A DNA stretch of 40,561 bases, from the IMG/VR virus record IMGVR_UViG_3300023371_000083, one strand, 5' to 3'. Position 1 is the first letter of the stretch. The number at the start of each line of letters is the position of its first letter. Below the pieces are notes generated by a model. That model worked only from the letters and a program-made list of their open reading frames with translations. It was not told where the DNA came from and searched no databases. This stretch comes from a virus (taxonomy: Duplodnaviria; Heunggongvirae; Uroviricota; Caudoviricetes). The position numbers and the translations under genes are program-made. Shown here piece after piece: positions 9,549 to 32,135 of the stretch.

Positions 9549-10625
9549 TTAAGCTTCGATTTCCCATGTACCGAATTTCTTGCCGATAACTGTAGCTACA
9601 CCCAGTTTCTGCTGATATTCAGCTTCAATAGACATATCTCTATTTGTATCTTTATCAGTTACTTCACTCATCTGAGCATCGCCTTCATCGTACAGTTTGA
9701 TGAATTTGTTATCGCCAACGGGCATAATCAGCAGTTTGCTATTATCAACCAGTTTTGTTGTTGTGTCATGAGGAGCGAATGCTTGGGGAATTTCAACCAG
9801 TCTTGTGCCTTCGAAATAACCCAGTCTACCTGTTGTATATCTTTCTTGTTTCATTTCATTAGAAACCCAATCAACTTCAGACATACCATTCAGTTTAGCC
9901 AGAGCAGATTTTGTACCCATGATAACAACTTCTTCACCTGTAGCTGTCTGAACATCTTCAATCAGTGTGATGAATGTGTCTCTCATAGAAGAATTCAGCT
10001 GACCTGTTTTAGCAAACTGAGATGTAGGCATTACTTTATCGCCAGCAGACATAACTGCTGCATATACCATATCGTTTACTTTTTTGTCAAATCCTTCATA
10101 GATTTTCTGAACAAAACCAGCCCAGTCAATTCTGCCAGCCATGAACAGTTCGTATTCAGCATAGATTTTTACACCATACCAGCTTGTTTTAACATTGAAT
10201 GTTTCGCCTTCAGCCAGTTTCTGTCTAATCAGGTTGTGATGATTACCAGACAGTTCGGATACAGTCAGGATACATTCATTAGGTGCATAGAATTCGTTTG
10301 TATCGCCAGCAGCCATAGATTTCATTTCTACGAATTCGTTGAAGAAAGGATTTTCACCCCAACCGGACACCAGCAGATCTGTTACTGTTTCTTCGATTAC
10401 TTCGTAAACTGCAACTTTATTTTTTCTAATTGCTTTTCTCAGTTCTTTTCTTGTGCAACCTTCATCAACACCTAGAACCTGGAACATTACTTCTCTAATT
10501 TTAGCGTTTGTATCTTCTTTAGATTTTTCATAAATGCCTTGAGCAGCATCAAACATCAGGTTTTTAAAACCATTCTATTCAAATGCAACAAATACGTTGT
10601 TTGTGCTATCGTTTGTGAATCTCAT
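9549..10625 (-). CDS. Major capsid protein (TAG at codon 17, 10575-10577)
   Basis: AGGAGG RBS before ATG 10625 (MRFTNDSTNNVFVAFE*NGFKNLMFD); size, codon style and position fit an SPbeta-type MCP. Confidence 0.8.
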
Positions 10626-14495: not shown

Positions 14496-16511
14496 TTATA
14501 GTCCAGAGAATAGAGAGCTGCGAGTCCCAGTTCTCATTGGTAATTTTTGTGCTAAACTAACATTTGGAGTTTCTTTTTTCTTATTTCTAATTTGGGAAAC
14601 TCGTTTTTCACTCAAATACCAACCAAGCATTGCTAATGTGTAAGCACGGTCATCATGCAACGTGCCTTCACTAGCGCCGGTATCAGCATCTTTATGAGCA
14701 GGAAGTTTAAATGAGTCAGAGCCGCTATCACGTTTTACACGACAAATATTTACAATTTCTTCTTTCATCGCATCAATTTGTGATAAAGCAACTTCTTCAT
14801 CAGGTGATAATTTATACATAATTGTTTGAGCTGTATCTAATTTGTCTAGCTCATCTGCTAGACGTTCTTCATATTCTTTTGTTGGAAGATCTAATTTATC
14901 TAATTCAGCTCTAATTCTTTTTTCGTTTTCTTTAATTGTTTTTGTGTCAATCTGTAGCATATTTAAATAACCACGATTATCATACTTTTCTGGGAATGTA
15001 ATATAATCTCCTTCGACCATTTTAATTAATGCCTCAAACATTTGAGATTTATATTTTGCTGGTTCGAGCATTTTAATTTTATCAACAGCGTTGGGGAATT
15101 TTCTTATGTAGTCTTTAGAAAATTCTTTGTCAATAAATCCACGCTGTTTTTTCCCGGATTTATCCATCCAGTCCTCTAATAAAAAGTCTGGAATACTTTT
15201 ACCGCCACCGCCGGCACCAGCATCAATCATAATACATTCAATATTACCATATAAATCGGCATCTCCATTGTAATCTAAAATCAATTGTTTTAATTCGCTA
15301 ATTTGTTGTGGAGTTGTTTTGGGTGTTTTTTTTCTAGTACTTAAATCCATAAAATTAACACAATTAACAATATCCATCATCCAACCCTTCTCATCGTCAT
15401 AGCGTAATTCACCAACGCTAACAACAGAATTGTCAGTAGATCTTGCAGGGTCATATGCTAATACAAAAGTTCTTTTTCCTGTATCATTACTCATTACAGG
15501 AGGGCGAACATAAGAGTTTCGTGTAATTAATGCACGTTTAATAATTTGTCCGGAACCACCATCTTCCGTGAACACATTATAATATTCTCTTAATGCCTTT
15601 TCTTGATTAACACGCATTTCTGCATCAACAGTTTCCTGACGCAGTAGTGAAGCGGGATAAATTTTTCCGCCTTTTGTGCCTCTAATTACAACATCGCAGT
15701 TAATATCTGCAACAAAATAACGAGGATCGCCTAAAAGCATTTTCTTGGAAAAATCCCTATATTTAGAATAAAACGGTGTATCAATAGAAGATGCAGATGA
15801 AATCTAGACAAGTTGATTTGGAATTTCTCTGGGTAGAGTTCTAATATCCATATCTCCACCCATTTTAAAATCTTTATTTACGATGGTAAATGCACCATAT
15901 ACATTCATCATTTCTTCCGACAAGAAGCCACATTCATCAAATACAACCATATTGCCACGAGCACCTCTTTTGCGGTCAATATTTGAATTCAATGTCTTAG
16001 TAAAAGAACCATTATAAAGACTGTAAAAATGCCCAGATGGATTATGGACAAATCCTTCACCCATGCCATTTCTAATCTCTAATTCTTGTTTAAATACACC
16101 GGTTAACCCAGTCATAGATTCAATATTTCTATTTGCAATATTTTCTAGTGTTTTAAAAGTTGTGATAGCCTGATCGCCAGAGCCAGAGGCAATATATGCC
16201 CAATAGTTATTAAATAGCATACCTTTTGCCATTAACATTAAGTCTGTAATTGAAGATTTACCAAAACCACGACTACACACCCATAAGGAGTAGGGGGTGT
16301 TCCAAGTTTTCATAATAGCATACGCCTGTGCATCAAGTAATTCTGCGCCGATTACATCTTTGATAAATTTAATCGGGTTTTTCTGATACTAAGCACGAAT
16401 TTCAGCAAGTTTTTGAAAACTCTCCAATTTTCTTGTGGACATAGAGTATTCAGTTGGTTTTACAAAAATCTCATAATTCTTGGGGATAAATAATTTATTT
16501 TCATCATTCAT
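14496..16511 (-). CDS. Terminase large subunit, 671 aa (TAG at 16389 and 15804)
   Basis: Walker A SRGFGKS, Walker B VVFDE, motif III LV*ISSAS, nuclease AYDPAR and HDDRAY; three fragments joined in one frame. Confidence 0.9.
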
Positions 16512-21645: not shown

Positions 21646-22187
21646 AGCTGATAATAGGACTTGAACCTAAATAACGATTTTTATAATACATTAGATGTTA
21701 GCATTATCAATAAGATCCAACTGTTTTGCTAATATATAATCTTTTGCAAAAGACACACCTTTTGTTTGCCCGTTCTTTGGTGAAGAAAATCTTAAAGTTT
21801 TTGATGATGCACATTCAAATACTGGGATCAAATAGCATTCACCATCATAAAATGTTGCAAAATAATCTGTATCATCCGATGTATAATAAACATTTTTAAC
21901 ACTCGAACAATTAACATGTGTGCTTCTACAAGAAATAATAATAGCATTATCGCCATCTAATAATGCAGCAGATTTAACTTGAACACGAAATATTTTTCTG
22001 CCTGTATCAACAATCATGTCCTATTTTGCATTATCACCAAAAGGAATGCTAACCTGACAACCATGTTGATAAAATGCTGTGATGCATTGTAACTCTGTAA
22101 TATTCCCTTTTTGTTTAGTAGTTAAATCCATATATTCACCTATTCTATTATAAAAATCATGCGCTCTGCCAATTGAGCTATACCAGC
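21646..22187 (-). other. tRNA (Thr-like body) split at the anticodon arm by an endonuclease ORF
   Basis: 5' half GCTGGTATAGCTCAATTGGCAGAGCG at 22187-22162; 3' half TAGGTTCAAGTCCTATTATCAGC at 21669-21647; acceptor strands pair. Confidence 0.75.
21691..22131 (-). CDS. PD-(D/E)XK homing-type endonuclease, 146 aa (TAG at 22021-22023)
   Basis: KGNITE...SIPFGDNAK*DMIVD...RVQVKS...DYFA motifs. Confidence 0.85.
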
Positions 22188-22195
22188 ATGATAAA

Positions 22196-22277
22196 TGAGT
22201 GATACTTGATTCGAACAAGTTCAGCAATTGCAACAGATTTACAGTCTGCCCCGGCTCTCCAACTCCGGCGATCACCC
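22196..22277 (-). tRNA. tRNA-Tyr (GTA)
   Basis: GCAGA-CT GTA AA-TCTGT, long variable arm, A73. Confidence 0.85.
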
Positions 22278-22657: not shown

Positions 22658-22741
22658 TGCAGGAGAGGAGATTCGAACTCCCAATCCCTCACGGGCGGCG
22701 GATTTTAAGTCCGCATCGTATACCAGTTCCGACACTCCTGC
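22658..22741 (-). tRNA. tRNA-Leu (TAA)
   Basis: GCGGA-CT TAA AA-TCCGC, long variable arm. Confidence 0.9.
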
Positions 22742-22747
22742 ACATTT

Positions 22748-22927
22748 ATATCCAAGAATAACTTAATGAGATGAAAAATATTGGAACATTACGAAAGGAT
22801 TAACTGAATATCCTTCAACCAATGTTTCTGTGTCTTTAAATGTGTAATCTGTATAAAACTTTTATATCATCATAGTTTTCTATAATTAAATCCTCAAAGA
22901 AGTAACTCATTAAACTGCATTGGATAT
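22748..22927 (-). ncRNA. Y-RNA-like unit 1
   Basis: Terminal stem + ATGCAG...stem...TTACTTC...stem...ATTCT motif shared with five other units. Confidence 0.65.
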
Positions 22928-22955
22928 AATAAGAGAATATTATGACCTATTTTAT

Positions 22956-23095
22956 AATTCTGAGTATAACTGAAATAGAAATTTTTAGCGCTCTCCCAAT
23001 TGAGCTACGGTGCACAACTTAGTACACCGACAGGACTCGAACCCGCAACCTCTCGATTAACCAGTCGAAGTAACTATTTCAACTGCATCAGAATT
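22956..23095 (-). ncRNA. Y-RNA-like unit 2 (YrlA-type, permuted tRNA-mimic domain)
   Basis: Shared motif; internal order is T-arm (GCGGGTTCGAGTCCTGT), capped acceptor hairpin, D-arm (TAGCTCAATTGGGAGAGC). Confidence 0.8.
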
Positions 23096-23109
23096 TTATT
23101 GCATTTTTA

Positions 23110-23238
23110 AGCCGAGAATGTCGTGAATAGTGAAAAAAGTCTATCGCTCTACCAATTGAGCTACCATATTAACCGCAATATAGAATAGATTTGAACTATT
23201 AACACATAGATGAAGTAACTATTCACACTGCATCAGCT
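23110..23238 (-). ncRNA. Y-RNA-like unit 3 (YrlA-type)
   Basis: Shared motif; T-arm AATAGTTCAAATCTATT, then hairpin, then D-arm TAGCTCAATTGGTAGAGC. Confidence 0.75.
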
Positions 23239-23253
23239 ATATTTACTTATTAA

Positions 23254-23337
23254 ATCAGAGAATAACTTATATGGTGTTAGCGTTTTCTGAAGCAAATATG
23301 GAGTATTTACGAAGTAACCATATAAACTGCATCTGAT
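23254..23337 (-). ncRNA. Y-RNA-like unit 4 (short)
   Basis: ATCAGATGCAGTTTATATGGTTACTTC...CCATATAAGTTATTCTCTGAT. Confidence 0.65.
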
Positions 23338-23354
23338 ATATATTTTTTATTAAA

Positions 23355-23488
23355 AGCATCTCTGAGAAGAGGTGACGAGTGCTATTGAGTTGGAAGCTGG
23401 ATTCGAACCAGCGTTTTCACCGTAAAAGGGTAATGTCTTATCCTCTTGACTATTCCGAAGTAACCCGTCTAACTGCATCAGAGATGCT
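23355..23488 (-). ncRNA. Y-RNA-like unit 5 (contains a non-permuted tRNA body)
   Basis: 12-bp terminal stem and shared motif; internal D, anticodon and T arms in normal order. Confidence 0.7.
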
Positions 23489-23494
23489 ATTCAA

Positions 23495-25126
23495 TTACTG
23501 TTTATTTTTGTTTTCAATTTCATTCCACAGTTCAATCATTCTGGAAGCAAAAATACTTTCTTTGCCTGTCCAACCAGTCATGATATTTGTTCTATATGCA
23601 TATTCTGGAATCAGAATGTTGTTATATCCTGCAGTCTGAATAGAGAATACATTTACTTTTGGATTAACCGCCTTACGGTAATCCTGGATTAGCTTAAATA
23701 CATTTACATGATTATAAGCGCATCCATATTTTTCATGATACTCAGAAACATCTTTGCCTGTACCATACAAGCCGCCATGACCAGCCTGTTGATCGGAATA
23801 AATAAAAATGTTATCCCAGTGTTCTTTATTAGCAATTGCATCTCTAAAGAACTTCCAAATGCCACCTTCTGTTGAGCCGCCAACATCACTATATCTGCTT
23901 TTTGTAATATCTTCAGACTGCTTCAGAATGCCATGTCTTTTGCTGATAGGATATGTTTTTAATCTGTCACCAAATTTACCAACATAACCCTCTTCGGAAC
24001 AAGCTGCAGTAATCACAGAGGAGAGATTATCAATTTCTGCAATACATACACTGCCATATTCTGAAGTAATTGTACCCCATGCAGAACCAGAGTTATCAGA
24101 CAGGCACATTGTTTTGCCTTTCAGCTTTGGCATATTCTGAATAGAAATATCCATACATTCTTCCAAAGCATCGATAATCTGAGGTTTATGATGGCATTTG
24201 CTACCAGATACCGCTTTCAGTGCAGAGTAATATCTGAAAGGGAATTGTTTGCCTTTCAGTACACCAGAAGTTAGTTTTGTAAGGTATTCTTTGCAGAATT
24301 CTGCATCGTCAACTTCTGTAAATACGCCACGCAGATTTCTTAACAAAGCCATATGACCCATATTCGTTGTTCTGAAAATTTCTTTCCAGCCCATACCAGA
24401 GGATCTTAGTGTTTCCCATGTTTTCTGGTCATCATCAACTTTCAGCGTATCATGCATCAGTTTATCCAGAGTAGGGGAGTTTGCGTGAGTGATACGAACT
24501 GCATTAATCATGCCGATTTCGCTATTTTTATATTTGTTTACCTCGTATTCTCTCAGATTGCTAAGTTTAGAAGCAATAGAACGCTTCAGAATACTAGGGA
24601 TATTATTTTTCTGACCTTTATTCAAGAACATATAATAAGCCAGCTGAGTCATTGGCTCATCAGCTCGTCTCATAACCTGTTCATTGATTTTATTGAACAT
24701 GCCATTGTATTCTGCGGAGAACACTTTTCTTTTAGGGTGAATGGCAGCACGAACCATGATAATCTGTGGATTCAGTCTCATGTTGTACTCATTTCTTAAC
24801 TCAACGGCAAGATTCAGAGTACCCATAAAGTCGTAGTCCAAAGCGTTATCTACACATTCTTCCATAATCTGAGTGGTTGTTTTACCATCAGAAAATTTCA
24901 GAACCAGGCTGTCTCGCACAATACGATCCAGATAAGATTTACCATCTCTAACTGCTGGTCTATAATAAGACGCTTCGCCAAAAATGGAAGATGCCATTAC
25001 CATTTTCAGTGTATCAAGAGGATTGATAACATAGCTATCTCCACCCATGAAGTTTGTCACTGTTTCATCTCTACGAAGCTTTGCTTCTTCGTGCATGAAC
25101 TTTACACTTTTACTCATTTTGCTCAT
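23495..25126 (-). CDS. rsr: Ro60/TROVE-domain RNA-binding protein (543 aa)
   Basis: NFMGGDSY, MALLRNL, QFPFRYYSA, vWA MIDAS DNSGS; AAGGAGG RBS before ATG 25126. Confidence 0.9.
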   Translation of the reverse strand: MSKMSKSVKFMHEEAKLRRDETVTNFMGGDSYVINPLDTLKMVMASSIFGEASYYRPAVRDGKSYLDRIVRDSLVLKFSDGKTTTQIMEECVDNALDYDFMGTLNLAVELRNEYNMRLNPQIIMVRAAIHPKRKVFSAEYNGMFNKINEQVMRRADEPMTQLAYYMFLNKGQKNNIPSILKRSIASKLSNLREYEVNKYKNSEIGMINAVRITHANSPTLDKLMHDTLKVDDDQKTWETLRSSGMGWKEIFRTTNMGHMALLRNLRGVFTEVDDAEFCKEYLTKLTSGVLKGKQFPFRYYSALKAVSGSKCHHKPQIIDALEECMDISIQNMPKLKGKTMCLSDNSGSAWGTITSEYGSVCIAEIDNLSSVITAACSEEGYVGKFGDRLKTYPISKRHGILKQSEDITKSRYSDVGGSTEGGIWKFFRDAIANKEHWDNIFIYSDQQAGHGGLYGTGKDVSEYHEKYGCAYNHVNVFKLIQDYRKAVNPKVNVFSIQTAGYNNILIPEYAYRTNIMTGWTGKESIFASRMIELWNEIENKNKQ

Positions 25127-25167
25127 AATTAAGCCTCCTTTTAATCCGGTGACTCTGCTTATGCAAA

Positions 25168-25256
25168 GTCGAGAATGCTTGCTAAGGCGATAAACATGGC
25201 CAGAATATGATATTAAAAGTATCATCCTAAGAAGTAGCCCTAGCATCTGCATCGAC
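25168..25256 (-). ncRNA. Y-RNA-like unit 6 (upstream of Ro60)
   Basis: GTCGATGCAGATGCTAGGGCTACTTC...CCTTAGCAAGCATTCTCGAC. Confidence 0.65.
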
Positions 25257-25265
25257 AATATATAG

Positions 25266-25355
25266 CGGAGCGAGTGAGGTTCGAACTCACACACGACATC
25301 CCTGCCGCCTAATGGTTTTCAAGACCATCCTCTTAGCCAATTTGAGTATCGCTCC
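25266..25355 (-). tRNA. tRNA-Ser (TGA)
   Basis: ATGGT-CT TGA AA-ACCAT, long variable arm, G73. Confidence 0.9.
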
Positions 25356-26058
25356 AAAATAATTCGTCAAAATTTATTTTTAATTTTTGTTCATCTGGGA
25401 TGTCTCTCCAATATCTCCATAAAAACCCAAATGCTGTTGTGTTTTCACCTCTACGATTACTTAATGAATCGCATATAGCACCACTATTTGGATTTTTATT
25501 AAATCGTCTATTTGCCTCAGATTTACTCTTATAAATAGAGATAATTGAATATGTAAAAGGATCTATTTGACATAAAAAACCACCATTTTCTTTAATTAAT
25601 AAATCTCTACATTCGTCACATGTTAGCCATTTTATATTATGTTTAGCTAAAATTTTTTTGACTGATTTTGGATCTATATTAAAATAACTAGCAGTCCTAC
25701 CTGCAACATATTTTGCAATAGAGCAATGATATTCAATAATTTCATTATCTGTAAATTGAATATATGGTTTTCCATCACCACCAATTGTCGCATTATACCC
25801 ATTAGATCCATATGTGTTTAGCTATTGAATCCAATATTTTTCTCTTGATTCAATATCATCTGTTTCCTCGATTATTTCAAATGAAAAATTGTCTATGCCA
25901 TATTTGTTCATTGCGCTCTACAAAGGACGCTTTTCGCATCTTCTTGTTTTGCTATCTTTTATATGTTCTTTAAAACGGTCATTTGGATTTAAATGATTTG
26001 TTTTGCCAACATATTGTTTTCCATTAATTTTATTAGTGATAACATAAATCTAACCCAA
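25333..26058 (-). CDS. GIY-YIG homing endonuclease A with NUMOD1-like C-terminus (TAG at 26050, 25918, 25822)
   Basis: GGAGG RBS and TTG start; MG*IYVITNKINGKQYVGKT...GYNATIGGDG...TAFGFLWRY; missed by the ORF track; 3' end overlaps tRNA-Ser. Confidence 0.85.
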
Positions 26059-26127
26059 ATTAACGCCTCCAGAAAATACATTATAATCCCCATTTTGTTA
26101 TAGACCTAATGGGCAAGCTGTCTGAAG

Positions 26128-26201
26128 CGGGCAATATGGGATTCGAACCCATGACCTTTCGGTTAACAGCCGAATGCTCTAACCAACTGAGCTAATAACC
26201 C
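26128..26201 (-). tRNA. tRNA-Asn (GTT)
   Basis: TTCGG-CT GTT AA-CCGAA. Confidence 0.9.
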
Positions 26202-26234
26202 GATAATATGATAAAACTATAAATTTTATCATAA

Positions 26235-26885
26235 TTATTTTTTTAAATAAGACCATTTATATCCCTAAGCGTGTTTATTTTTTCCTCTCAAAACTTCATA
26301 TATTGCCGAAGAAGTTCTGCTTTTGCCAAATGCTTCATTGGCGTCTGCGACACTGTTAAACTGCGCAATAATTTCATTACTTTTACAATCAATCTGACAA
26401 ACAATATTTCCACGCTCAGAGATTAATACCTGATTAACTTCATCAGAATTTAAATGATGAATATTATATTTATCTAAAATAGTATTAACGGTTTTGGGAT
26501 CAAGGTGAAAATAACGAGCAGTTCTCGCAGATATATATTTTGCTTCTGTACAATGCTAAATAATTATATCTTGATCACTATAAGGCACATAAGAACGCCC
26601 ATCTCCTCCACGGGTAGCATTATACCCATTCGATCCATAAGTACCGAATTTTTGAATATAATACATTTCTCTATCTTCTGGGGAGTATGTTTCTTCGATT
26701 ATTTCAAAAACAAAATTCTCAACACCATATTTATTAAATGCTCTATAAAGAGGGCGGTTTTTGCAACGATCTTTTTTACTATCTTTTATATGCTGATAAA
26801 ATCTCTCAATAGGATTTGTTTTTTCTGTTTTTCCTATCTATTTTTTACCATTAATTAAATTTGTAATAGAATATATGTAAGCCAA
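26235..26885 (-). CDS. GIY-YIG homing endonuclease B, paralog of A (TAG at 26838, 26556, 26265)
   Basis: AAGGTGG RBS and TTG start; MAYIYSITNLINGKK*IGKT...GYNATRGGDG...HA*GYKWSY. Confidence 0.85.
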
Positions 26886-26994: not shown

Positions 26995-27003
26995 GAAAAT
27001 TAG

Positions 27004-27074
27004 CTACCCTGCGTGGATTCGAACCACGACCGTAAGAATCAAAATCTCATGTGCTACCATTACACCACAAGGCA
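27004..27074 (-). tRNA. tRNA-Gln (TTG)
   Basis: TGAGA-TT TTG AT-TCTTA, U1-A72, G73. Confidence 0.9.
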
Positions 27075-27514: not shown

Positions 27515-28171
27515 TCACTCCTTGAAAATATCCTCTACATTTGTAACAATTTCATCACAAACACCGAGTTCTTTTGCTTCAGACGCAGAAATAAACCATT
27601 CAGAACCAAATTTTTCATCCATCATCTCTTGTGGAATATTAGTTCTTTTCATAATATAAGCTTCCATTTCTTCCATCTGACGCTGATACTCCAAGATATG
27701 AGCAATAATTTCATCATAAGTTCCTTGAAAATTACCACTGCCTTTATGAATTAAGAAAGTGGCACTAGGCATAGCGTATCTCTTATGGCAAGCAAGATAC
27801 ATCATGCATCCTGCACTATATGCCATACCCATATTTACACCAATTACTGGAGTTTTAGATGTTTCAATCAAATCAATCATTGCATTATTAACATCTAATG
27901 AACCGCCAGGGCTGAAGAACAGTAAATAAATTGGTTTTCTATTTTCAACTGGTAAACCTGTATCATCTTTATTCCACATCATGATATATTTACCAAATTC
28001 AAGAAAGCCATCTGTTACATCCATATCCAGCCAGAGAATACGATTCTCTAGGTTTTTATACTATGTAAGTAATTCTGGAGAGGGGAGCTGTAAATTCTCA
28101 ACATATTTAGGAATTAAAGCTTGAATCAGCTGTTCCTCTGTCATAATTTGTTTTTGATTATTATTATCCAT
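27515..28171 (-). CDS. clpP: ClpP-like peptidase (TAG at 28061-28063)
   Basis: SPGGS, GMAYSAG, FLIH, EAKELG motifs; AAGGAG RBS before ATG 28171. Confidence 0.85.
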
Positions 28172-28247
28172 AGTTCTCCTTTTTGCTGACAATATTTTTT
28201 AGTTTAGAGTTGTTTAAAAAAATATCGCTCAACTAACTTACAAACTT

Positions 28248-28276
28248 ATTATATCATAGATCGTTTAGATTGTCAA
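28248..28276 (-). promoter_or_regulatory. Consensus sigmaA/sigma70 promoter upstream of clpP-HU-tRNA island
   Basis: TTGACA-17 nt-TATAAT with extended -10 TG and an A-rich UP region. Confidence 0.85.
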
Positions 28277-28419: not shown

Positions 28420-29331
28420 TTATTCAAATTCATCATTTTCTGGTCTGTGGACATTTTTTATACTATCTCGTTGCAAAGCTTTTTGTTTTGTATAATAATT
28501 TTTCCGATAAACAGTATAACAATCACTACATCTCTCGGATCTTGTATCTTTAATGCTTGTCTCAAATAGTTTTCCGCAGTCGATACAAACGATATATTTC
28601 GTAGTAACAGGCGATAACTTAGAGCATTGTTTACAAATCTTAGAATGAGACGAACCTTTGCTTTTTATTTTTTGTTTTGGAAACTTTTCATATTTGCCAC
28701 ATACATTACAGAAGAATCCTTTTCCAGATAAAACCATATACTGATTACCAAGATCAACAAGACTGGTGATAGGGTAGTTTTCTCCATCAGACATAATTTC
28801 AACTTTAATGTTTGTATTACTACATTTAAGTGATAATGAAATTTGTCCAGAATTCTTTAAGTAATGAATTTTAAGCATTTTAGATTTTTTATCACCATTC
28901 ATATTAGCAAGCTTAAATAATTTTACCCAATCCACATTAACCCAGTTTGAGTTCTCTGGTCTGGCAGCATTATACTATTTAGCAAGACATAGACAAGTGA
29001 ACATTAATTTTTCAGCTTGATCGTCACATAAAGATTGTATTTCATCAAGCTCTGAATCACTAATATAAATAGTGTCCACCTCTAATAATGGCTATTTTTT
29101 TGCGTTGTTGATATATTTACAAACAACATCATACCATTCGTCAGAATTATATCCCGAATAGTTTTTCATCATAAATTCATCAATTTTTTGAAGAATGATT
29201 TTCTTTCTATATCCAGAAATATGCCAAAAATATCTGACGAGTAACTGCACTGTGGCTGAAGGCTTCTTGTCAACAATTCCTTGCTCCAGAATTTTTTCAG
29301 CCTATTTTCTTTCATTTAACAATAATTCCAT
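28420..29331 (-). CDS. Conserved hypothetical protein with C-terminal Zn fingers, coupled to the RNAP gene (TAG at 29302, 29092, 28975)
   Basis: Read-through reaches an ATG overlapping the RNAP TGA; four CxxC pairs. Confidence 0.75.
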
Positions 29332-32075
29332 CAAATATCACCTCCCGAAATAACCTTTTCTTTAATTGCAAATCGCTCACCGCAATAAACAATATCACCA
29401 TCGGCATCTTTAGCAGGGTATTTGATTGTCATATTATTTTTTTCAAGCAAATTAGATAGGATAGTGCTACCACATAAATCCCATGCAAATTGTTTAGACT
29501 TGTTATTTGTATAGCAAAGATCAATTACAATATTACATAAGCGTTTTGCATTAGGACAAATTTCATAACATTCTCTAACAAAAATATCTTGAAACATTTG
29601 CCTTGCAACTTTTCTGCTTTCTTCATCTATGTTGTCAACTTTAACATCCTGTGCATACTGTTGAACACGCTTACCATATTCAAGGTATATATTTTTAATT
29701 TTCTCAAATTCATCTGCTGTGTATTCAACATCTGATTTTAAAATAGATGCATCAAATTCTGGATATACATAATCAAAATCTGGATAATGTTCTACTTTAT
29801 GACAAATGCGATTTACAACACAGTCAGTATCAGTAACAGGAATGTTATTATGATAATACATTAGGAATATTTCTTCATCTGTGGTTCTATCATCAGAACT
29901 CAATAAATCATTTAATGATTTCCCAAACGATCCCCAACATTTCATATCACAAGCATTAACATATTTATCATAATCACTTTTCAGATAATCATAATTCTAC
30001 ATGAAGAAATAGGGTTTCTTACACGCTGCCGTTCTCTGATAGATCATCTTCAACTCTTTTACATCATCTGGATCATCATCATTGATACGGTTAACCTTAT
30101 TGTCATACCAGTGTCTAGGCATGGGTTTTGCAATAATCCCTTTTGCTTTATCAATTTGGTTTTGTTGCTCCAACTGCCCACAAATAATACGCTATTGTAG
30201 CACTTCATACTCTGGGCTTCCTTCTGGATACATTGCTTGTAAACAAATCTGAGAAGTAATAATGTTTGTAGTTGAACCGATGGCGTCACCAAAGCTCAAC
30301 TTATTTGAAGTAATTAAATCTTCCTCAGTTGGAATTTTCTTTTCTGCTTTACGCTGAATACACTGAATTACAGGAAGATTTTTTGTATTCCGTAATAAAA
30401 TTTCTGAATTAGTGGTATAAAACATATCGCCATCATGATCACTACCATTTAATGCTTCTGCGGTTGTATCCCAACTGTTTAATAGCATACATGTGGTAAT
30501 CTATTTATACCAATAATCTATTTCTGCGTTTGATACAGGCTTCATTTTTCTGATATTGTATTCAGAAGACATTGGTGCTCTGAAGCAGACAATTTCTTCT
30601 ACATTTCTATCAGACCAGTACTTATGCTAACATTCACCTTTTTTCAAAAGCCCAGTAACTTCTAACCCAAACATATTTTGTGCCAATGAATAAGGATCTC
30701 CGCCGGTAACAGCAAAGTTCGCATCAAGTTTAAGTACACCAATTTTTGCCTGTTTGATTTTTTTCTTTACCATGTGGTAGATTTTGCTTCTGATAAACGG
30801 ATCGTTAATCAGTCTGCTGTCAACCATCAGCGCTTTTGCGAAATCAAAAAAATCATCAGAGAATACATTTTTATCATTAATGCCAAATCCACAAAGGAAC
30901 AGTGCCGACTTTCTCCAATCCATACCCATTACATCACAGATTTCGTCCATAGTAGGTTTGATGAGTGCATCAACTTCTACATCAGAAAGTTTCTAGTTCT
31001 GTAAAAATTGATAATTTGTTTCACGGACGCTATCTAATTCGTAAGGTGTAACTTTAGAAACAGCAAAACTATATCCGTTTTCTATGGTATTAATCCAATA
31101 ATCCTCCCAAGATGAATAATGATCCCATAACTTTAACATTGAAGCAGTCAAAATAACTTCTGCGTCTCTAACATCTCGTTTTGTACCCCAAACATCTATG
31201 ATTTCATATGTTCCTGCAACTTTTTCTGCAAAATCAATAAAATCAAATGTAAAGAGCATTCCTTTAGACCAGGGTAAACCCCTTGTGTTTACGCCAGAAA
31301 TATATTTGCCATATTCTCCACCAAGTTCAATATTCCAACGAAAGGATAAGGAAGGGAGCATAAAACCATACCCATCGCTATCAACCAAGGATATTTCTTG
31401 ATTTTTTAAAAAGGAAAGGGTGGGCTCTTCACCTTCGCTATCATCGACCCGAATGATGTCCTCAAAGAATTTTGTTTCGCAATCCGGCACAACAATAATA
31501 CCATTTGGATTTGATACAGGAATAGATCCACTACAAACCAACGCTTGGTATGCCTCCAGCTTTGCGGGGACAATAGGAATTTCTTTGTTTCTGCCATTGT
31601 CAATTCTTCGCTTTAACTCTGGGTACAAACGCTCACTGACATAAACAATTGTGGAGTTTTTAATACCACCATTTGTGCCAAGTAATCGTTTATACTGAAC
31701 ACCATTAATAGAAAAACCTTTATTGGCTCGATCATAATCAGAATCTCTATCAATAATCAAACACATATAATCTTCTTGAAATTGTGTTTCCTATAAGGCT
31801 TTCTATAGGCGTTTCATGTGTTCTTTATTCTCTTGTGAAGTTTCTTGTCTTCTTAATCTTTTAATTTCGTTTTTTAGCATTTTAGCTTTTGCATCAGTGT
31901 TTACACAGTTCAACTCGTCGATGAACCGTAAAATCTGACTATCAGAAAGAGCGATAACATCTGTTTTGTTCTTTAGTGCTACATCAAGAGGTAGCTCTAA
32001 ATCCCATTTTGCCTTTCTAAGACGGCTGCTATGCAGTTTGTAAATCTACTTATGGCAAGCCTTTTGTTTAGCTAT
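29331..32075 (-). CDS. yonO: YonO-like single-subunit (double-psi beta-barrel) RNA polymerase, ~914 aa, 8 in-frame TAG
   Basis: NGSDHDGD catalytic motif plus DSDGYG, KGML, FRAPM, IDKAKG; fragments joined in one frame; apparent ATA start. Confidence 0.85.
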
Positions 32076-32135
32076 TACTATTCATCCTTTCTACATGTAA
32101 ACCATATCAGTTTAAAAGTACCCCCATTTTTTAGG

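Follow-up and report, generated by a model that had tools for sequence, protein, structure and literature searches.

The stretch of DNA analysed here (the window, 40,561 nucleotides) is part of a phage record (G000) of 82 kb, with 33% GC and about 64% completeness; it contains terminase and portal genes, a tRNA cluster, and a homologue of the YonO RNA polymerase of phage SPbeta. Two paralogous GIY-YIG endonuclease genes sit among the tRNA genes, and it is this location that suggests a homing role for them. Both occupy the minus-strand positions at which an earlier, sequence-only reading of this DNA had placed them: gene B (26885-26235) has a TTG start, encodes 216 amino acids when TAG is read through, and ends on TAA; gene A (26058-25333) also begins with TTG and ends on TAA, after 241 amino acids. 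In-frame TAGs occur at codons 16, 110, and 207 of gene B and at codons 3, 47, and 79 of gene A. A tRNA-Asn(GUU) gene (26127..26201, minus strand) lies between the two, and the 3' end of gene A overlaps a tRNA-Ser(UGA) gene. Located 25 nt upstream of gene B is a feature that the sequence-only reading had missed, an 84-nt, type II amber-suppressor tRNA gene with the anticodon CUA (26994-26911, minus strand); tRNA-Gln(UUG) (27003..27074, minus strand) lies directly upstream of it.

From the reciprocal positions of these TAGs in the two paralogs, the sequence-only reading had proposed that TAG behaves as a third tyrosine codon, a variant of TAT and TAC. Its count of four TAGs facing Tyr, one facing Phe, one facing Lys, and none facing Gln was retained in a pairwise protein alignment of A and B (MAFFT; 53% identity), where the six TAGs stand opposite TAC, TAT, TAT, TAT (Tyr), AAA (Lys), and TTT (Phe), with Gln at 0/6. 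Given a Tyr background of 7.2% of the aligned A/B columns, at least four Tyr matches among six would arise by chance with P = 3.5e-4. Substitutions between the two genes peak at the third codon position (111, vs. 70 and 57 at the other two), and neither gene contains an internal TAA or TGA or a frameshift, which agrees with what had been claimed. The pairwise pattern is real; the accompanying assertion that it needs no database is slightly overstated, since six sites in two mobile genes cannot separate recoding from decay. TAT and TAC are a single change away from TAG, homing endonucleases often decay, and genome-wide evidence was needed because the A/B comparison alone cannot exclude TAT/TAC-to-TAG nonsense mutations in decaying genes.

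Both proteins match the Pfam GIY-YIG family (PF01541) above cut-off and align with I-TevI's catalytic domain; the motif residues Y5, G18, R28, H32, E73, and N89 are intact in A as well as in B. The first TAG of gene B (codon 16; 26838..26840, minus strand) falls on the tyrosine of the YIG motif, in the column of I-TevI Tyr17, and the full GIY-YIG catalytic set (Tyr, Tyr, Gly, Arg, His, Glu, Asn) is complete if this codon is read as Tyr. Homologues were collected from 1.84 billion representatives with a query in which B was translated with TAG as Gln, and which was thus biased against Tyr; the best 149 were aligned, leaving out a top match identical to B. In the column of B16, all of the 143 homologues carry Tyr (Gln 0/143); at A47, Tyr is found in 139/145 and Gln in 2/145. 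Tyr occupies the A3 column in 86/142 and the B207 column in 83/145 homologues; the two remaining columns are mixed (A79: K 49, Y 31, and Q 18 of 149; B110: L 40, Y 28, and Q 0 of 148). A public protein, P0001, is identical to B residues 74-216 and shows Q at both TAGs that it spans, as it should under ordinary genetic code 15; this Q most likely reflects table-15 annotation, in other words a mistranslation. A and B are predicted to be intact, free-standing homing endonucleases of the SegB kind that obey the local code: they are indicators of it, not its cause.

In-frame TAGs extend to conserved phage genes on the same strand. The gene for the terminase large subunit (14496..16511, minus strand) has two, and its codon 236 aligns with Y in 67/69 homologue rows; the probable major capsid protein (9549..10625, minus strand; designated by gene order only, in a PHROG of unknown function) has one at codon 17; and in a ClpP-like gene (27515..28192, minus strand), TAG44 faces Y in 15/20 homologue rows. 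The YonO-like single-subunit RNA polymerase (29331..32075, minus strand; the start near 32075 is inferred from the closest relative, G001) has eight. This protein contains the DxDGD motif and shares 26% identity with annotated yonO over 57% of the query (E about 1e-18); Tyr is found at six of its seven scored TAG columns and Leu at the seventh (18-19 homologues), and the eighth TAG, in an N-terminal extension revealed by G001, faces Tyr there. Its reading frame continues upstream of the first TTG for about 55 codons (window 32075-32090, minus strand), to an apparent and unusual ATA start that follows a strong Shine-Dalgarno-like sequence. The idea that nonsense mutations at Tyr codons have made pseudogenes of A and B, or that the TAGs are assembly errors, has next to no probability: TAGs occur in terminase, capsid, and polymerase genes as well, the endonucleases retain their catalytic residues and lack internal TAA and TGA, a cognate tRNA is present, and eight TAG sites are common to G001, which was assembled separately. 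It is only through such other assemblies that assembly error appears to be excluded.

A PD-(D/E)XK endonuclease gene (21691-22131, minus strand) carries one TAG; it splits a tRNA-like gene at the anticodon loop (window 21648-22186, minus strand), with no Rfam intron match. A TROVE (Ro60-like) gene (23495-25294) is flanked by six repeats with a common starting motif (window 22700-23480 and 25253, minus strand), two of which weakly match Rfam YrlA (34 and 30 bits, cut-off 69); the repeats and this gene probably represent a Y RNA-like array and its Ro60 partner.

With TAG read through, the coding coverage of the window rises from 72% to 83% (ORFs of at least 80 amino acids). The 29 curated window proteins contain 36 TAGs, and 32 of these could be scored against homologue columns from 116 non-recoded loci; Tyr is the plurality residue at 17/32, compared to 206/332 at TAT sites, and the rate at which another residue prevails in distant homologues (15/32) resembles that of TAT and TAC. 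An initial pass covered 67 loci, recoded ones included; there, Tyr stood opposite TAG in 51% of aligned rows, opposite TAT in 54%, and opposite TAC in 50%, while Gln stood opposite CAA/CAG in 26-28%. The summed log10 likelihood at TAG sites is 0 for Tyr, -10.3 for His, and -22.7 for Gln; the scoring is simple, works site by site, and was trained on these very genes, which makes the margin a rough figure. TAG corresponds to tyrosine. Ordinary code 15, with TAG read as Gln, is the published norm for recoded phages (Borges et al., 10.1101/2021.08.26.457843; Peters et al., PMC9523058; both as far as the accessible text goes) and is used by the relatives L062 and L065; for this genome it is scarcely credible and already refuted at the sequence level, with Gln 10^22.7 times less likely than Tyr, nearly or wholly missing from the columns of A47 and B16, and a suppressor tRNA whose body is of the Tyr type.

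Phe, Leu, Lys, or Glu appears in some TAG columns, and the A73 and long variable arm of tRNA-Tyr are also features of tRNA-Leu; TAG could then be a mixed codon, ambiguously charged with Tyr plus Leu, Gln, or another residue. This is very improbable, as TAG and TAT/TAC have matching residue profiles, B16 falls in an invariant Tyr column, and the best non-CUA match of the tRNA is Tyr.

The TAGs are distributed unevenly. In the late region they make up 35 of 473 Tyr-type codons (28 genes), in the early region 2 of 672 (59 ORFs; p=4e-12). As a terminator under the standard code, TAG is found in 0/59 early ORFs vs. 39/219 in 13 standard-code relatives, whose ORFs were crudely called (p=7e-5); TAA ends 16/28 late genes and 38/59 early ORFs. 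TAG is thus nearly absent from early genes and from gene ends. Within the window genes, TAGs are enriched in the first 50 codons (17/36, vs. 68/439; p=2e-5), and in G001, where the starts are uncurated, 25/58 TAGs fall there vs. 114/798; in the window late genes and in G001 the enrichment of TAG over TAT/TAC is about 4-5 times. These features, in-frame stops in conserved essential genes, late enrichment, and depletion of TAG as a stop, are those by which recoded phages of the Borges type are recognised; the alignments and likelihoods do not show the TAG-to-Gln assignment of genetic code 15, and the genome does not read both TAG and TAA as Tyr, the mark of genetic code 29.

The suppressor tRNA gene of the window was found because a CUA tRNA in the closest relative, G001, led to its orthologue here; ARAGORN (default and relaxed, -ps90) and Rfam returned no CUA tRNA in the window, and a very relaxed ARAGORN intron scan of the window gave noise. 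This gene comes out first within window positions 15000-40561, at 55 bits, under a covariance model derived from eight other tRNAs. It has a G1-C72 pair, A73, a CUCUAAA anticodon loop, and a long variable arm followed by three unpaired nucleotides. Bacterial tRNA-Tyr is characterised by G1-C72, A73, U35-A36, a long variable arm, and three unpaired nucleotides before the T stem; by sequence, alignment, and nearest isotype, the suppressor shows all of these. Among 211 distinct tRNAs from the fetched loci, tRNA-Tyr(GUA) was the best non-CUA match for the copies of the window, L001, and L132 (scores 57.5, 93, and 102.5, with the next isotype at 41.5, 61, and 69, respectively), and the window copy thus scores lower against Tyr tRNAs than its orthologues; the D and T arms of the L132 suppressor are identical to those of the tRNA-Tyr of L123. 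The window itself has an ordinary tRNA-Tyr(GUA) (22196..22277, minus strand), a paralogue of the suppressor. Judged by these alignments, the suppressor is of tRNA-Tyr ancestry. The orthologues were labelled tRNA-Pyl by ARAGORN; tRNA-Pyl has a short variable loop and G73, and this assignment was rejected on account of the long variable arm, A73, and the Tyr columns of the TAGs. With TAG columns, essential phage genes, and a Tyr-type CUA tRNA beside gene B in agreement, the proposal of a third Tyr codon has been substantiated.

The window copy of the suppressor lacks the canonical G18-G19 and the T-loop UUCRANY, which are present in L001, L132, and L243; its D-loop has A in place of G18, and its T-loop reads GGCAGUA. 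This non-canonical pair is the most likely cause of the miss by ARAGORN and Rfam. It also leaves room for the reading that TAG is Tyr but that this tRNA, with its odd elbow, is defective, and that suppression comes from the host or from a tRNA encoded where the genome, about 64% complete, is missing. Such an arrangement is improbable: all stems pair and covary with the orthologues, tRNAs with ordinary anticodons share the same D/T-loop pair, and the avoidance of TAG in early genes fits a standard-code host. Two-sided changes were found at 11 of the 20 base pairs, a count reached by none of 500 shuffles, in an alignment of five related rows, one of them misaligned in the acceptor stem. Free-energy folding was uninformative (z -0.5), with similar values for a bona fide tRNA-Tyr.

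A scan of viral sequences for the T-loop GGCAGUA returned at least 117 matches. Among the matches listed, 31 pair in both the T stem and the acceptor stem, some of these being tmRNA-like; these 31 include Tyr(GUA) tRNAs with the same D-loop, plus Lys and Ile tRNAs. The combination of A18 and GGCAGUA is seen in phage tRNAs with ordinary anticodons at L266, L272, L288, L307, L317, L327, L355, and others (L289 was disregarded in this comparison). Decay as the source of the odd T-loop was rejected, given this recurrence in tRNAs with ordinary anticodons. No paper on this D/T-loop pair was found in the literature searched. GGCAGUA is presumably the T-loop of alphaproteobacterial tmRNA; confirmation in print was looked for and not found, and the resemblance is not used as evidence.

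The closest relative, G001 (loci L001 and L015), shares about 70-79% protein identity with the window. Window TAGs stand opposite TAT (16), TAG (8), TAC (1), and other codons (4) in G001 (n=29); conversely, G001 TAGs stand opposite TAT (12), TAG (7), TAC (3), and five others, including one CAA (n=27), and a Gln codon faces TAG in 1/56 pairings. Between G001 and a near-identical assembly, L123, TAG pairs with TAT twice, with TAC once, and with TGG once. Against distant references the signal of G001 is weaker, with Tyr at 14/33 sites and 4/7 conserved columns in uncurated ORFs; an NlpC/P60 gene beside its holin carries two TAGs. G001 is classed as a provirus with a flank of only two genes, and a GTDB scan yielded seven phage-like contigs in genomes of mixed taxa. 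The nearest isolated phages by the YonO-like gene infect Clostridium and Enterocloster (about 40%), from which a clostridial host would be inferred.

The suppressor family of the window is also found in G001, L123, L132/L120, and L243; a pattern scan of metagenomes gave 61 matches, and only L120, L123, and L132 represent this tRNA. In L132, six TAG sites could be scored, and at four of them one or more of the five nearest homologues has Tyr. In an integrase-family gene of L132 (L132:10229-11266), one TAG stands opposite Tyr; by contrast, the integrases described for recoded prophages are free of TAG. L243 has the tRNA and, of its ten ORFs, seven have homologues and contain no TAG; its two TAGs sit in an ORF without homologues that lies over a tRNA gene, a pattern that would fit acquisition of the tRNA before the codon change. 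In a quick portal tree (90 rows), the window, G001, and L123 form a clade with support of 100; L132 stands apart, among standard-code and Gln phages, despite its window-family tRNA, and transfer of the suppressor between phages may be inferred from this placement.

Other recoded lineages serve as controls. At least three in-frame TAGs occur in 16 of the 133 loci with at least 500 aligned residues, and these 16 trace back to the window, G001/L123, L132, L059, and the two records from which L062 and L065 derive. The approach discriminates between codes: L062 and L065 give Gln (at 9/29 and 7/36 sites, respectively), and the unrelated phage L244 gives Leu at 11/16 sites and has a CUA tRNA with a D arm resembling that of the tRNA-Leu of the window. 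Sequence context had suggested TAG = Tyr for L244, a guess rejected by the alignment; context alone misleads. The L244 lineage, including L384-L390, has Leu-like CUA tRNAs. The suppressor of L062 is unlike the family of the window; this CUA tRNA (L062:6958-7045) is closest to tRNA-Trp, though the TAGs of L062 align with Gln. In L194-L197, L222, L225, L234, and L062, CUA tRNAs open with a U1-A72 (or A1-U72) pair and have long variable regions; families combining G1-C72, A73, and a long variable arm occur in L240, L241, L245, L254, L257, and L261; in L242, L246, L262, and L263; in L252 and L259; and in L260.

Very probably, then, TAG in late genes is read as Tyr by a CUA tRNA derived from tRNA-Tyr and likely charged by the host synthetase, while TAA and TGA remain stops. 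The early genes would be translated by unmodified host machinery. A perfect match (12/12) to the sigma-70/sigma-A-type promoter consensus with an extended -10 (28248..28276, minus strand) is the only perfect site among 52 and is followed by clpP as the first gene, a 114-aa ORF, tRNA-Gln, the suppressor tRNA, and gene B; G001 has a weaker site (10/12, with TG, read by eye) in the same place. This consensus match predicts a promoter that would serve the host polymerase for transcription of the suppressor, which the host TyrRS would charge in the manner of E. coli supF. The charged tRNA would allow full-length synthesis of the YonO-like polymerase with its eight TAGs, of terminase and capsid, and of both GIY-YIG endonucleases. 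The late programme would thus depend on the suppressor, and the nucleases would stay silent up to that point. YonO itself presumably acts in late transcription. Neither TyrRS (PF00579) nor a release factor (PF00472) that might account for overcoming RF1 competition at the eight polymerase TAGs was found in four incomplete records, G000 included.

The neighbourhood of suppressor and endonucleases also invites a more elaborate scenario, built on the homing endonuclease SegB, which recognises a motif of the tRNA T-arm and causes the tRNA region to spread (PMC2330249, accessible text), and which A and B resemble in family and position. Suppressor and gene B could form a self-spreading code switch, in which the nuclease depends on the tRNA to obtain its active-site tyrosine, cuts the tRNA T-arms of rivals as SegB does, and spares its own neighbour by the GGCAGUA T-loop, while homing carries TAG=Tyr between distant SPbeta-like phages and comes to gate the late RNA polymerase. 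As a whole, this chain is doubtful. In G001, L123, and L132 the tRNA is present, yet the sequence compared contains no GIY-YIG match; the other called tRNAs of the window mostly have canonical T-loops, and the variant loop is widespread, which counts against the T-loop as nuclease immunity.

Recoding of TAG by phage suppressors is already known; tyrosine as the residue appears to be new in the searchable literature, apart from an isotype hint. In the accessible parts of their texts, Borges et al. (10.1101/2021.08.26.457843) describe only TAG-to-Gln and TGA-to-Trp in phages that differ from the host code, and suppressors in 40% of TAG-recoded genomes; Pfennig et al. (10.1101/2022.06.29.495998) align TAG with Gln and find TAA-to-Tyr unsupported; Peters et al. 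(PMC9523058) validate Gln in two crAss-like phages; and Lou et al. assume code 15. Of 180 phage suppressor tRNAs in a further study, 1.1% were predicted to be of the Tyr isotype; in the accessible text this is an isotype prediction without codon alignment (PMC10879173). No paper showing TAG-to-Tyr in a phage was found in the literature searched, which was largely without subscription journals.

The A/B finding samples a TAG=Tyr code that extends across the phage and has a concealed cognate tRNA; the sequence evidence for this code is strong. It points to a genetic code without an NCBI table, in which TAG is Tyr and TAA and TGA are stops (among the table definitions checked, none combines TAG=Tyr with TAA as stop), and it runs counter to the published view that code-differing phages repurpose only Gln and Trp charging. 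Table-15 pipelines place Gln at active-site tyrosines, P0001 being an example; a suppressor hidden from ARAGORN and Rfam offers one concrete explanation for the 40% figure of Borges et al., as given in the accessible text. Standard, Gln, and Tyr readings of TAG within one phage family provide a natural series for code change, and the proposed gating of late genes is open to direct test through the eight TAGs of the YonO-like polymerase.

The window shares with code-15 gut phages a low GC content, late and structural in-frame TAGs, the absence of TAG from gene ends, a phage CUA tRNA, and standard-code relatives; it differs in that the residue is Tyr and not Gln, that the tRNA descends from tRNA-Tyr(GUA), and that the late-gene RNA polymerase homologue itself has eight TAGs. 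TAG = Tyr is common to this phage and to NCBI table 29 (Mesodinium nuclear), where UAA and UAG are both Tyr (PMC11687900, accessible text); table 29 is eukaryotic and reads TAA as Tyr too, whereas TAA is the main stop here. The GIY-YIG motif of A and B is that of the I-TevI catalytic domain (PDB 1LN0, 1MK0), and like T4 SegB (PMC2330249), they have a GIY-YIG domain with intact motif residues in a gene between tRNA genes; unlike SegB, there are two paralogues, both needing amber read-through, and the likeness is one of family and position. The window polymerase is a distant homologue of YonO of Bacillus phage SPbeta. E. coli supF is an amber suppressor tRNA-Tyr charged by TyrRS, in which C replaces G34; it has G1-C72, A73, and a long variable arm. 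The window tRNA likewise combines a tRNA-Tyr body with CUA, G1-C72, A73, and a long variable arm; unlike supF, it occurs naturally, is carried by a phage, is conserved in several phages, and has its counterpart in codon use throughout the genome, with a non-canonical D/T-loop pair in the window copy.
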